Assembly: GCF_000199675.1 (NCBI RefSeq) | Contig: NC_014960.1 | Coordinates: 435,157-467,156, forward strand | Reading direction: 5' to 3' | Length of the DNA stretch: 32,000 bases | From: Anaerolinea thermophila UNI-1 | GTDB taxonomy: Bacteria > Chloroflexota > Anaerolineae > Anaerolineales > Anaerolineaceae | Part shown: piece by piece, positions 1 through 7,757 of the stretch | Layout of the letters: every line of letters starts with the position of its first letter | Numbering within the stretch: the first letter of the stretch is position 1 | The notes under the pieces: generated by a model | Told to the model about the DNA's origin: nothing | What the model saw: the letters and a program-made list of their open reading frames with translations, nothing else | The model's database searches: none | Position numbers and translations under genes: made by a program

Positions 1-310
1 CGCTGATGTAGCAGATGACCCTGCGTCCCTGAGCATGCAGTTCGTCAATCACGGCTTGATCCACGTACAGGTCAATATCGTACACATCCACATCAACGCG
101 GGTGTCAATCTCGTTATTGCCAATCTGCCACTGCCAGGTAAGCCCAACCGTGGGGCGCCACCAGTCGGCGGCGGGGTGAGGGGAATTTTCAGAGGACATC
201 TCTGCGGTCTCCGTAAAACGAACAAAGGAAGGGGCTGGCGGGAGCGCGGGGGCACATCCCGCCAGCGCGATGGACAAAATCAACACCAGATGAGCAAATC
301 GCAGGCGCAT
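1..310 (-). CDS. Secreted lipoprotein, GH114-like (endo-alpha-1,4-polygalactosaminidase family); N-terminal part only, gene runs off the left edge
   Basis: Absent from the ORF track because it has no stop in the window. The minus-strand ATG at 310..308 lies 3 nt after the GH4 stop. Translation: MRLRFAHLVLILSIALAGCAPALPP...ADWWRPTVGLTWQWQIGNNEIDTRVDVDVYDIDLYVDQAVIDELHAQGRRVICYIS. It has a signal peptide with an LAGC lipobox, followed by the WQWQ / VYDIDL / G-x-x-VICY-S pattern I associate with the Glyco_hydro_114 TIM barrel. The family call is from memory of the motif. Confidence 0.65.
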   Translation of the reverse strand, partial: MRLRFAHLVLILSIALAGCAPALPPAPSFVRFTETAEMSSENSPHPAADWWRPTVGLTWQWQIGNNEIDTRVDVDVYDIDLYVDQAVIDELHAQGRRVICYIS

Positions 311-313
311 TCC

Positions 314-1645
314 TTACACGCGGTGGACCTTGAACTGCGGCAGGTAATCCTTATGCACGGCAAACAATTCATTAGTCATCTGGCGGATTTCTGCCAGCGA
401 AAGCACCGAAGCCGTCAGCGGGTCGTGACAGATGGCACGGTACACCATGGTGGGGTCGCCCGCAATGGACGCCTGCACCGCCATTTCCTCAATGCCGCTG
501 GAAAGTTGGGTGAGCAGAGCGCATTCAGGTGGGAGCGCGCCCACGTGAGTGGGGTGGAAGCCTGCGCGATCCACGTACACAGGTACTTCCACGCAGGCAC
601 CTTCGGGCAGGTTGGTAATGAGGTGGGTGTTGCGCACATTGCCGTTGAACTTGAAGGGTTCGCCGCCCTTCAGCGCGTTGATGATATACGCCGCGTATTC
701 CTCGCCACGCTGTAAATCCTCGGGGGTGAGCGGTGCTTCCAGACGTTCGCGCACCTGATCCTTCCAGGTGGCTTCGTTGCGCTGATATTCCTTGAGGATG
801 TAGGCGTACTCGCCTGGATTCCAGCCCGTGCCGTGTGTGCAGTACTTTTCGATGAGGTCGGGGCGCTTGCGGAACCACCAGTTGTATTCCGAGTTGTGAC
901 CGCTGGATTCGGTGACGTAATAGCCCAGCGCTAGAAACATCTCGTTGCGGACAATTTCCTCGTTGTACACCTCGGGGCGCTCGGTCACTGCTTTGCGGAT
1001 GAGCGGGTAGGCGTCCTGCCCATTCCATTTGTACTCCAAGTACCAGGCTTGGTGGTTAATGCCCGCGCAGACGTAGTCAATTTCCTCGTAAGGTGCGCCA
1101 ATCCAGCGCGCCAGCATCATGGCAGTGCCCTGCACCGAGTGGCACAATCCCGTCACGGTGATGAAGGACTGCTTTTGAATGGCAGAGACCAGCATCGCCA
1201 TGGGGTTGGTGTAGTTGAGCAGGACGGCGTTGGGGTAGTATTTTTCCATATCGCGGACAATGTCCATCATCGGGTTGATGGTGCGCAGAAAGCGGAAGAT
1301 GCCGCTCGGTCCGCGGGTATCGCCCACGTTGATGTCCACGCCGTACTTCTTGGGGATTTCAATATCATGCCGCCAGACCTCGGTACTGCCTGCCAGAATG
1401 GTGGTCAGCACCACATCCGCGCCCTTCAGGGCTTCGGCGCGGTCCAGGGTGGCGGAGACGGTGGCAGGGCGTTTGCCCGCCGCGATGAGTTTCTCCACCT
1501 GCCGTTTTGCCCATTCCAGCCGTTCGGGGTGAATGTCCATCAGAGCGATGTGGGCATCTTCCAGCAGGGGGAAGGTGAGGATGTCGCGCACCAGTTCGCT
1601 GGTGAAGCCCAAACTGCCTGCACCGATGAAGGTAATCTTGGTCAT
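314..1645 (-). CDS. Glycoside hydrolase family 4, NAD+/Mn2+-dependent alpha-galactosidase-like (MelA-like)
   Basis: 443 aa. N-terminal Rossmann motif [11 protein letters not shown]4 hallmarks [33 protein letters not shown] and GNVRN..NLP are near-collinear with E. coli MelA as I recall it. An AGGAG SD lies upstream of the ATG at 1645. Substrate (Gal versus GalN) cannot be read from the sequence. Confidence 0.9.
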
Positions 1646-1672
1646 AAGAACACTCCTGTAACGAAGATAAAT

Positions 1673-2515
1673 TTAGCGCTTGACGCCGCTCAGGGCAATA
1701 CCCTCAATGAAGAAGCGCTGAGCAAAGAAGAAGACGATGAGCAGGGGCAGGATGCTGATCAGCGCGCCTGCCATTAATACGGTAAAGTTTCCGCCGCGGG
1801 TCATCTGCGTCTGGAAGAGCGCCAGCCCGACCGTCAGGGTCGTGTTCGGCGCGGCAGGCATATAGACCAGCGGGCGAAGCAAGTCGTTCCATGCGCCCTG
1901 GAAGGAAAAGATTGCCAGCGCCGCCAGAGCAGGCTTGGCGAGCGGCAGGTACACCTTCCAGTAGATTTGCGGCAGGGTTGCGCCGTCCACCCGTGCCGCA
2001 TCCACCAGGTCGCGGGGAATGGTGAGGAAGTACTGCCGCAAGAGGAACGTGCCGAAAGCCCCGCCCCAGAAGGCAGGCAACCACAACGGCACACTGGTAC
2101 CCACCAGCCCCAGCCATGAGAAAATGACGAAATTGGGGATAAGGGTCACATGGAACGGAATCAGCAGGGTCAGTAAAAGCAGGGTGAACAGGAAATCTCT
2201 GCCTTTGAAGCGTACCACGGCAAAGCAAAACGCCGCCATGGAGCAGGTGAGCAGTTGCCCAATGGTGGTCAGCAGGGAAATGACCGCACTGTTGAGGAAC
2301 AGCAGGGGGAAACTGATATCGCCGTAGGCAAAGAGCGCCTGAAAGTTTCTCAGGGTAAAGGTAGGCGGAATGAGCGTTTTGGTGAACTGATCGGCGGGCA
2401 GTTTGAAGGACGTGGACACCATCCACAGGAAGGGGGTGACCATGCCTACCGCGCCGATGAGCAGGATGAGGTACGTCAGAGCATCCAATAAACGGGTTTG
2501 TACGCGTTTTCCCAT
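1673..2515 (-). CDS. Carbohydrate ABC transporter permease (CUT1, MalG-like)
   Basis: Multi-TM protein with the binding-protein-dependent transport signature region (AARVDGATLPQIYWKVYLPLAKPAL). Start trimmed from 2545 to the ATG at 2515, which follows a GGAAGGAG SD and avoids a 17-nt overlap with the upstream permease. Confidence 0.9.
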   Translation of the reverse strand: MGKRVQTRLLDALTYLILLIGAVGMVTPFLWMVSTSFKLPADQFTKTLIPPTFTLRNFQALFAYGDISFPLLFLNSAVISLLTTIGQLLTCSMAAFCFAVVRFKGRDFLFTLLLLTLLIPFHVTLIPNFVIFSWLGLVGTSVPLWLPAFWGGAFGTFLLRQYFLTIPRDLVDAARVDGATLPQIYWKVYLPLAKPALAALAIFSFQGAWNDLLRPLVYMPAAPNTTLTVGLALFQTQMTRGGNFTVLMAGALISILPLLIVFFFAQRFFIEGIALSGVKR

Positions 2516-6883: not shown

Positions 6884-6906
6884 GGGCAAATTCCTTGAAA
6901 AAGGAT

Positions 6907-7683
6907 TTATGCCAGCAAGACCCGAACCCCCAGTTCCTGCAGGGCAGAGATGAAACTTTCATCGGCTTCCTGGGTGGTGATGAAGGTGTGCATGCTGGTC
7001 AGGGGAGCAAGGAAGGCAGTGGAGACGCGACAGCATTTGGTGTGATCCGCCACAACGATAACCTCGCGCCCAATTTTGAGGATGGCGCGGTCGGTCATGG
7101 TTTCGGGCAGGTAATCGTTGGTCAAGCCGTGTTCCAGATCCACGGCGCGCACCCCCAGAAAGACCTTATCGGCGCGCACCTCGCTGAGGGCTTGCTCGGT
7201 GATGTGTCCGATGAAGGAGAGTTCGCTGTCGCGTAAAATCCCGCCCAGACACACCACCTGAATATGTTCCATGCCGGCAAACAGGTTGACCACCGGCAGG
7301 GAATTGGTGATGATGGTCAGCCCTTTGCGCTCGCGCAGGTGTTTGGCGATTTCCAGCACCGTCGTTCCCGAGCCAAGGAAGACGGTTTCGCCATCCTGTA
7401 CCAGGGTAGCGGCAAGCCTGCCGATGCGGGCTTTCTCATCCGCCTGCTCATGACTGCGCTCCAGCAGGGGCGGCTCCGGCGCAGCCGGTTGTAGAGGAAT
7501 AGCGCCGCCATGCACGCGCTGAATCAAGCCCTGCGAAGCCAGCGCTTCCAGGTCCCGGCGGGCAGTGGCTTCACTGACGGCAAACTCTTCGCAGATTTGG
7601 GCAATCTTCACCCGTTGCTGGCGCTGAAGCAGTGCCAGGATGGCTTGCTGACGTTCGATATTGGAAAGAGAGGGGATGTCCAT
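6907..7683 (-). CDS. DeoR-family transcriptional regulator (HTH plus DeoR C-terminal sugar-phosphate sensor domain)
   Basis: RQQAILALLQRQQRVKIAQICEEFAVSEATARRDLEALASQGLIQRVHGGA is a classic DeoR HTH, and the C-terminal half is DeoRC-like. The track start at 7692 is a TTG; an in-frame ATG at 7683 is used. Confidence 0.9.
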   Translation of the reverse strand: MDIPSLSNIERQQAILALLQRQQRVKIAQICEEFAVSEATARRDLEALASQGLIQRVHGGAIPLQPAAPEPPLLERSHEQADEKARIGRLAATLVQDGETVFLGSGTTVLEIAKHLRERKGLTIITNSLPVVNLFAGMEHIQVVCLGGILRDSELSFIGHITEQALSEVRADKVFLGVRAVDLEHGLTNDYLPETMTDRAILKIGREVIVVADHTKCCRVSTAFLAPLTSMHTFITTQEADESFISALQELGVRVLLA

Positions 7684-7689
7684 AAATTT

Positions 7690-7757
7690 CAATCACAAAC
7701 AATCAAAATCAATCAGTTTCCATCAATTATTATGGAATATTTTGCGCGAAAATACAA
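7690..7757 (-). promoter_or_regulatory. Candidate deoR-operon promoter with a helically phased pentamer operator array
   Basis: On the minus strand: TTGTAT (7757-7752), a 17-nt spacer, then CATAAT (7734-7729). Downstream of it, GATTG occurs three times at exactly 10-nt spacing (plus-strand CAATC at 7690, 7700 and 7710), immediately before the deoR ATG. Confidence 0.45.

Follow-up and report, generated by a model that had tools for sequence, protein, structure and literature searches.

An eleven-gene operon of Anaerolinea thermophila proposed to serve the catabolism of alpha-1,4-linked galactosamine polymers

Which glycan feeds an operon that couples a predicted surface lipoprotein of glycosidase family GH114 to an oligomer importer and to enzymes of amino-sugar and tagatose type? 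The locus that raises this question lies at the left end of a 32,000-nucleotide stretch of DNA (the window), positions 435157-467156 of the complete 3.53-Mb genome of Anaerolinea thermophila, and 15 kb to the left of the window were added to the analysis. Once this flank is included the locus is an operon of 11 genes headed by its regulator. Judging from its gene content, it probably lets Anaerolinea cut, import and catabolise foreign polymers of alpha-1,4-linked galactosamine (GalN) and N-acetylgalactosamine (GalNAc), such as Pel, galactosaminogalactan or polygalactosamine. An earlier note on this DNA had proposed the use of alpha-linked GalN polymers; the gene identities, the kinase and aldolase found and the synteny speak for that reading, while the roles given to the GH4 glycosidase and the Amidohydro_2 protein still stand as proposals.

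Gene calls on the window were made by Pfam and NCBIfam profile searches, with the most plausible start codons chosen. These searches confirmed every one of the eight minus-strand genes described before, which run from deoR through genes for the Amidohydro_2 protein, a two-SIS-domain protein, a CUT1 solute-binding protein (SBP), two permeases and GH4 to GH114, and with the chosen starts the successive gaps are 23, 4, 24, 70, 13, 27 and 3 nt, as in the 3-70 nt range given earlier. The locus was also expected to run beyond the left edge of the window, and it does: the complete GH114 gene, a LacD/DeoC-type class I aldolase (genome 433639-434586), a PfkB kinase (genome 432684-433634) and a GatZ/KbaZ-family protein (genome 431394-432683) follow there on the same strand, with gaps of 22, 4 and 0 nt after GH114. 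The kinase and the aldolase that had been sought to the left are thus both present, together with GatZ as a tagatose-6-phosphate branch. Since the same gene order is found in dozens of genomes, the arrangement is not a matter of chance.

In the pathway that we propose, the gene identities come from the searches and all substrate assignments are inferred. The surface-anchored GH114 lipoprotein would cut de-acetylated stretches of the polymer to oligomers, which the CUT1 SBP and its two permeases would import, powered by an orphan MalK/MsiK-type ATPase of the genome. In the cytoplasm the Amidohydro_2 protein would strip N-acetyl groups, and GH4 would then free the GalN at the non-reducing end by NAD+/Mn2+ oxidation-elimination. 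The PfkB kinase would form GalN-6-phosphate, the GlmD-like SIS enzyme would turn this into tagatose-6-phosphate and NH3, and GatZ would epimerise the product to fructose-6-phosphate; as an alternative exit, tagatose-6-phosphate might be re-phosphorylated and the LacD-type aldolase would yield dihydroxyacetone phosphate and glyceraldehyde-3-phosphate. The DeoR protein would occupy three phased TGATTG boxes until released by a sugar phosphate intermediate.

The enzyme that would open this route is cut by the window edge, which leaves its first 103 codons inside (1..310, minus strand) and the gene end at genome position 434609. Its assignment to GH114 from the truncated reading frame is borne out by the full protein of 285 aa, which matches PF03537 at 285.5 bits (gathering threshold 27) across profile positions 1-231. 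The closest solved structure is Ega3, the endo-alpha-1,4-galactosaminidase of Aspergillus (6oj1, E 7e-56), and both catalytic residues are kept: D165 in the motif EPDN and E223 in the motif TED align with D189 and E247 of Ega3, for which the roles of nucleophile and acid/base, respectively, have been verified (PMC12054363). The offset of 41 between chain and protein numbering of Ega3 is itself inferred; the 58-residue spacing of the two residues is the same in both proteins. A signal peptide with the lipobox LAGC makes the protein a predicted lipoprotein, and in this genome and in most of the best-matching loci of relatives it is the sole secreted glycosidase at the locus. The characterised GH114 enzymes all cut stretches of alpha-1,4-linked GalN (PMC12054363), and the present protein would do likewise. 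With Ega3 of Aspergillus fumigatus and the endo-alpha-1,4-polygalactosaminidase of Pseudomonas sp. 881 the protein shares its family, the catalytic Asp/Glu pair and an extracellular location (PMC12054363); unlike Ega3, which belongs to a biosynthetic cluster and remodels the fungus's own polymer, it is a 285-aa bacterial lipoprotein of a catabolic operon. No bacterial GH114 enzyme has yet been obtained as soluble recombinant protein (PMC12054363).

The biosynthetic setting in which both Ega3 and PelA work (PMC12054363) invites the reading that this GH114, too, trims a GalN polymer of its own cell and stands beside a catabolic operon only incidentally, as might also be argued from the 9 relatives, out of 13 that have a GH114, in which its surroundings are not catabolic. 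We regard this as very improbable. A search of the complete genome for PelG gave no match, which makes it unlikely that the enzyme takes part in Pel synthesis by its own cell; only 3 nt separate GH114 from the end of GH4, no synthase gene is nearby, and the adjacency of the two genes is kept in 19 loci. Among 14 control genomes a PelG match was seen in Thermotoga maritima only, a species that has a GH191 galactosaminidase (PMC12054363).

Given a galactosaminidase at the cell surface, what would the GH4 enzyme (314..1645, minus strand) release from the oligomers? Both GH4 domains are recognised in it (PF02056, 170 bits; PF11975, 180 bits), and the alignment shows an N-terminal GxGS motif, which we take to bind NAD+, together with the Cys and His (NHQ) that are presumably the metal ligands. 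In keeping with the earlier proposal, the enzyme does not cluster tightly with MelA: its identity to MelA of Escherichia coli is 40%, against 55% for a paralogue in the same genome, and in our tree the locus-linked GH4 proteins form a clade of their own with 100/100 support and a long stem, separate from the MelA clade. By these sequence comparisons the locus GH4 does not appear to be a MelA orthologue, and we propose that it acts as a cytoplasmic exo-alpha-galactosaminidase. It is unusually well conserved: its counterparts in related loci share 74-98% of their residues with it (mostly 74-92%), against about 50-70% for the neighbouring genes. We also considered 51 positions that are fixed in the locus GH4 clade and differ from the MelA clade, where charge gains and losses nearly cancel, and drew no GalN signature from them. 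The genome holds six GH4 paralogues in total.

The enzyme does pass the curated alpha-galactosidase model NF011657, narrowly (511 bits against a cut-off of 486), and this bears on the possibility that the locus serves plain alpha-galactosides, with GH4 as an ordinary alpha-galactosidase acting on the galactose blocks of galactosaminogalactan or on substrates of melibiose/raffinose type, and with the amino-sugar genes handling a minor product. GH4 proteins of the MelA clade do occupy the same slot in three related loci (L069, L093, L103), and the GH4 domain of one natural GH4-Amidohydro_2 fusion (P0142) falls within the MelA clade. We nevertheless consider such a role for the locus improbable, because two better MelA candidates have an operon of their own elsewhere in the genome, the locus GH4 clade stands apart on its long stem, no Leloir genes occur at the locus, the SBP is distant from RafE, and the pairing or fusion of GH4 with Amidohydro_2 would be purposeless in plain alpha-galactoside use. 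The two better candidates are tandem MelA-like GH4 genes (genome 973158-975923, minus strand) that score 698 and 606 bits against NF011657, one of them being the paralogue with 55% identity to E. coli MelA. They belong to an operon of the Opp/Dpp ATP-binding cassette (ABC) type, which also encodes an SBP_bac_5 protein of 741 aa and is probably what the genome really uses for alpha-galactosides.

The proposal of an alpha-galactosaminidase leaves the N-acetyl groups to be dealt with, and here the Amidohydro_2 protein enters the argument (345 aa; 5846..6883, minus strand). It matches PF04909 at 80.9 bits (gathering threshold 26.4), retains the metal site of His-x-His, His, His and Asp, and keeps H30, H32, H167, D170, H227 and D282 invariant among 48 homologues; its AlphaFold2 model is a TIM barrel with a mean confidence score (pLDDT) of 95.5. 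It is the most constant partner at the locus, and in most of the relatives that carry it the identity is 65-77%. A sequence search of the PDB with this protein returned no match, structure comparison with Foldseek and VIA-align led to the uncharacterised 3irs and 3cjp (Z about 22) and to ACMSD-type decarboxylases, and a search of the ESM Atlas gave unnamed amidohydrolase clusters only. More telling is the company that it keeps. Natural fusions join Amidohydro_2 to GH4 (five protein clusters), to SIS, to a LacD/DUF2090 aldolase, to PfkB, to GDSL esterases and to CBM9; Amidohydro_2 and GH4 also occur as stand-alone pairs (L044, L050, L053, L080); and where its flanks are annotated, the gene adjoins GH4 or a GH36-like enzyme or, within the genus, lies near a GlmA-like exo-beta-glucosaminidase. 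Moreover, the best hit to NagA/AgaA (TIGR00221) in the genome, which is 99.97% complete, reaches 20.7 bits against a cut-off of 226.

Two known systems pair a deacetylase with an exoglycosidase in a comparable way. In the chitin route of Thermococcus kodakarensis (Tanaka et al. 2004, as cited in PMC6566704), which consists of ChiA, Dac, GlmA, a glucosamine (GlcN) kinase and GlmD, the de-N-acetylase Dac is followed by GlmA, an exo-glycosidase that needs the free amine (PMC6566704). The order of steps proposed here is the same, from an endo-enzyme through a non-reducing-end deacetylase and an amine-specific exo-glycosidase to a kinase and an SIS-type deaminase; in addition, the SIS protein of the locus is most similar to archaeal GlmD, and same-genus relatives pair the DeoR, Amidohydro_2 and SIS genes with a GlmA-like GH35. 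The systems differ in the sugar (alpha-GalN here, beta-GlcN there), in the enzymes, with GH114 in place of GH18, GH4 in place of GH35 and Amidohydro_2 in place of the LmbE-type Dac, and in the product, which here would be tagatose-6-phosphate and would require GatZ or an aldolase. Flavonifractor plautii provides the second pair, a GalNAc deacetylase and a GH36 galactosaminidase (PMC11762096) that remove alpha-GalNAc in two steps, de-N-acetylation and then alpha-galactosaminidase action, as we propose for this locus; in some variants of the locus, too, a GH36-like enzyme lies directly beside the Amidohydro_2 gene. The F. plautii pair, however, consists of secreted enzymes that target the blood-group A antigen; they belong to families unrelated to Amidohydro_2 and GH4, and no catabolic operon of comparable layout surrounds them. 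Taken together, the fusions, the exo-glycosidase neighbours, the lack of NagA/AgaA and these two precedents lead us to read the Amidohydro_2 protein as a GalNAc de-N-acetylase, whose substrate might be oligomeric, free or 6-phosphorylated, a reading to which we give slightly less than an even chance. About 100 protein clusters (P0280-P0390, the named ones from Planctomycetes) join CBM9 to an Amidohydro_2 domain about 50% identical to the locus protein, and the CBM9 and GDSL fusions suggest that the family also acts on extracellular polysaccharides.

How the oligomers would enter, and what would become of the freed sugar, can be read with varying sharpness from the remaining genes. The CUT1 set consists at the locus of a family-1 SBP (SBP_bac_1, lipobox LTAC; 3487..4767) and two MalF/MalG-type permeases with BPD_transp_1 domains, permease 1 (MalF/UgpA-like) at 2529..3416 and permease 2 (MalG/UgpE-like) at 1673..2515, all on the minus strand, the ATG of the latter at 2515 being preceded by the Shine-Dalgarno sequence AGGAAGGAG. 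The ATPase is encoded elsewhere: a single MalK/MsiK-type ATPase bearing an OB_MalK domain exists in the genome, at 2.326 Mb, which explains why no ABC ATPase gene is found at the locus. The SBP has AbnE and Lmo0181 as its nearest solved structures and reaches only 39 bits with RafE, so that it does not group with raffinose-family binders, a grouping that would have told against the earlier proposal.

The two-SIS-domain protein (PF01380 twice; 4792..5841, minus strand) had been labelled AgaS-like, and this label did not survive. Against the NCBIfam models it scores 142 bits for GlmD (NF041128, cut-off 580), 131 for the C-terminal half of GlmS and 91 for the AgaS family (TIGR02815, cut-off 529), its best PDB matches are the archaeal GlmD structures 2cb0 and 2dec, and its two-SIS architecture is common to the AgaS and GlmD families; the protein is therefore nearer to archaeal GlmD than to AgaS, under all curated cut-offs, and we propose for it a role as sugar-phosphate deaminase/isomerase. 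The PfkB kinase is closest to the ribokinase and IolC families and reaches 78 bits with fructoselysine 6-kinase. That weak likeness, together with a match of 45 bits between the SIS protein and the putative fructose-amino-acid-6-phosphate deglycase 3eua, might suggest a fructosamine (Amadori, frl-like) locus in which the SIS protein is the deglycase and PfkB a fructosamine 6-kinase. The likeness to GlmD/GlmS in the one protein and to ribokinase/IolC in the other is much stronger, and such a locus would leave GH114, GH4, GatZ and the tagatose-type aldolase without a role; we find it hardly credible.

For the aldolase the better matches are to NF009498 (218 bits, cut-off 184) and, in the PDB, to the DUF2090 protein 8tnf (107 bits), LacD (92) and YihT (83); the lacD model TIGR01232 gives 78 bits against a cut-off of 432. 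The GatZ/KbaZ protein passes TIGR02810 (570.8 bits, cut-off 568.8) and matches PF08013 at 615 bits. Proteins of this family interconvert tagatose-6-phosphate and fructose-6-phosphate as 4-epimerases (PMC11907403), an activity that the locus GatZ would by analogy share. Three related loci hold PfkB and GatZ without the aldolase (L041, L086, L098), which fits a PfkB that makes GalN-6-phosphate as a 6-kinase, with GatZ leading on into glycolysis and the aldolase offering an additional way out. The galactitol/tagatose route of Agrobacterium tumefaciens, with its PfkB-type tagatose kinase and GatZ-like tagatose-6-phosphate 4-epimerase (Wichelecki et al. 2015, as reported in PMC11907403), is similar in that PfkB adjoins a GatZ-family protein that stands alone, lacking a class II aldolase as partner, and the product is fructose-6-phosphate; it differs in that our PfkB is not orthologous (85 bits with NF049991, whose cut-off is 420) and in the entry, which would here be GalN and not tagatose.

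Whether these genes belong together is best judged across relatives. A survey anchored on Amidohydro_2, with one genome per species, gave 409 confirmed matches, and the best 80 loci were taken with 10 kb on either side. In these 80 loci SIS was present in 70, DeoR in 66, the ABC genes in 64-65, GH4 in 49, GH114 and PfkB in 27 each, the aldolase in 24 and GatZ in 9; the genes at the operon end are often cut off by the flank limit or by the end of the contig. Of 33 loci with GH4, 22 also contain tagatose genes; of 10 without it, 1 does (the relatives are not independent of one another), and this covariation is our main reason for reading the substrate as galacto-configured. Forty loci have at least 1 kb of sequence past GH4; in 23 of them the first recognised gene to follow is GH114, which in 19 is directly adjacent. 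In a second survey, anchored on GH114, 13 of 40 relatives carry GH114, and 3 of the 13, from three genera, have it in the same locus and in the same order; the complete gene order is retained in G005, G023 and G012. At the genome level 4 of the 40 relatives have both GH114 and the module to which it is attached here, 7 have the module alone, 9 GH114 alone and 20 neither. Given this weak co-occurrence, our claim of linkage rests on local synteny only. The linkage that the earlier note expected among relatives thus stands as far as the order kept in Anaerolineae and the position of GH114 after GH4 are concerned, with the correction that GH114 is an accessory front end and not obligate. It is absent from 7 of the 11 module-carrying relatives, so that the imported oligomers may derive from the enzymes of other organisms or from other depolymerases.

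Variant loci contain further parts connected with GH114, among them a second, divergent GH114, proteins in which a GH114_assoc domain is combined with DUF1565/beta-helix, and a GH36-like enzyme. Proteins that unite DUF4874 with DUF4832, one of them with CBM9, recur in five such loci (L046, L051, L062, L039, L074) and in some variants adjoin PMT_2/TMEM260-like membrane proteins; they could be candidate depolymerases for the same class of polymer. In two genomes of the same genus (G002, G007), the DeoR-Amidohydro_2-SIS trio is accompanied by GH35/GH42 with a GlmA-like second domain, GH130, GFO_IDH_MocA and a beta-lactamase-fold protein (L117:7535-9658, L119). Here the trio forms the basis of another kind of amino-sugar locus, and no tagatose genes occur in these trio-only loci with their GlcN-type enzymes.

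A more general reading can be built on such variation: the operon would serve hexosamine glycans at large, with its substrate some other GalN/GalNAc glycan (sheath or capsule, glycoproteins, mixed debris) and the trio a substrate-agnostic deacetylase/deaminase cassette to which varying glycosidases are added. The same-genus trio loci, which lack GH4, GH114 and the tagatose genes, would fit it, as would the 7 of 11 module-carrying relatives without GH114 and the variants in which DUF4874/DUF4832 and beta-helix candidate depolymerases replace or join GH114. So would the fact that two unrelated ABC sets serve the module across loci, their SBPs being either 61-70% or 24-30% identical to the present one. 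We think this reading unlikely for the operon of Anaerolinea thermophila: the only secreted glycosidase here is a GH114 with Ega3-like catalytic residues, the characterised members of that family all cut alpha-1,4-GalN (PMC12054363), and the tagatose branch indicates a galacto-configured sugar.

Returning to alpha-1,4-linked GalN polymers as the preferred substrate, a number of points must be set against them. The occurrence of the trio beside GlcN-type enzymes in same-genus relatives means that its specificity may be broad. The coupling of GH114 to the module is loose at the genome level. The fold of the Amidohydro_2 protein resembles only uncharacterised amidohydrolases and ACMSD-type decarboxylases, from which no function can be transferred, and we know of no PF04909 member that is a sugar deacetylase. 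GH4 passes the curated alpha-galactosidase model and can be replaced in its slot by MelA-clade enzymes, which makes a plain alpha-galactosidase role conceivable, for example on the galactose residues of galactosaminogalactan; nor, to our knowledge, does any GH4 enzyme act on 2-amino sugars. The SIS protein falls under the cut-offs for both AgaS and GlmD, PfkB is not orthologous to LacC, to tagatose kinase or to known hexosamine kinases, and GatZ and the aldolase look redundant.

The nearest described pathway as a whole is the aga pathway of E. coli, Shewanella and Firmicutes, composed of AgaR, AgaA, AgaS, tagatose-6-phosphate kinase, and KbaY/KbaZ or LacD (PMC12118421). The present locus resembles it in the DeoR-type repressor at its head, in the GatZ/KbaZ-family protein and, as proposed, in the succession of deacetylation, deamination/isomerisation to tagatose-6-phosphate and entry into glycolysis. 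It differs in having a CUT1 ABC oligomer importer in place of a phosphotransferase system or a permease and kinase, a GlmD-like SIS enzyme that is not an AgaS orthologue, a class I LacD-like aldolase and no class II KbaY, a PfkB that is not a LacC orthologue and, in addition, the secreted GH114, GH4 and Amidohydro_2; AgaA/NagA is lacking from the Anaerolinea thermophila genome. We propose the locus as a variant of the aga/tagatose-6-phosphate pathway, extended at the front by polymer degradation and including two enzymes for which the suggested activities would be new to their families.

Our literature search, which covered subscription journals thinly, found no end-to-end catabolic route for Pel, galactosaminogalactan or polygalactosamine, and no link of Anaerolinea to tagatose, GH114 or galactosamine. 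It is possible, and we put it forward with some doubt, that the operon represents the first end-to-end route for eating these polymers, with a core unit of Amidohydro_2 de-N-acetylase and GH4 alpha-galactosaminidase that occurs as neighbours or fused. As cationic polymers of biofilms, Pel and galactosaminogalactan are widespread; their synthesis is well studied, and we found no account of their natural consumption in the literature. A well-delimited operon in a thermophile that is in culture and has a complete genome sequence offers a testable route, along with candidates for soluble enzymes, namely a bacterial GH114, a GH4 that may be an alpha-galactosaminidase and what may be a new family of sugar de-N-acetylases, all of interest for biofilm dispersal. 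Such a route would help to account for the diet of Anaerolineae in sludge granules. If the proposal is true, sugar de-N-acetylation by Amidohydro_2 and alpha-galactosaminide hydrolysis by GH4 would be activities undescribed for their families, and, with the unit present in hundreds of genomes of Anaerolineae from sludge, sediment and groundwater, these filamentous bacteria would play a major part in recycling cationic biofilm matrix.

Control of the operon appears to be exerted at its head. The 5' boundary is marked by the strong terminator of the upstream metG gene (7792..7819, minus strand), with a 12-bp stem and a T-rich tail. A single candidate promoter had been named earlier for all eight genes; read directly, the sequence offers TTGTAT-17-CATAAT (7731..7759, minus strand), a consensus-level candidate only, whose -10 box agrees at 5/6 positions and whose weak -35 box at 3/6, and which fell under the threshold of the promoter scan and was not listed by it. 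The first gene encodes the DeoR-family repressor (6907..7683, minus strand, with ATG at 7683 as the likely start), with HTH_DeoR and DeoRC domains; AgaR (NF040755) is its best NCBIfam match at 198 bits, below the equivalog cut-off of 260, and we call it AgaR-like in that sense. Between the -10 box and its start codon lie three TGATTG repeats at a 10-nt phase (7690..7715, minus strand), a putative DeoR operator. The phased triplet, with at most 3 mismatches allowed, stands ahead of deoR in 39 of 65 related loci; elsewhere in the 2.6 Mb of locus sequence it is matched only twice, for a total of 41, and this supports a single, autoregulated operator.

Within the operon, the 70-nt gap between the SBP and first permease genes holds a 15-bp GC-rich hairpin with no U-tract (3433..3473, minus strand; -37 kcal/mol, z -3.3), and none of 200 shuffled sequences folds equally well. 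The hairpin may confer differential stability on the mRNA, favouring the SBP message, as in operons of malEFG type. At the other end, downstream of GatZ, lies an open reading frame of 329 aa without a family match (genome 430004-431389), in which an internal Met is followed by the lipobox LLTGC, and next to it a YbjQ-family gene. The closest relative (G005) lacks both genes at this position; we therefore excluded them from the locus, and they look like an insertion.

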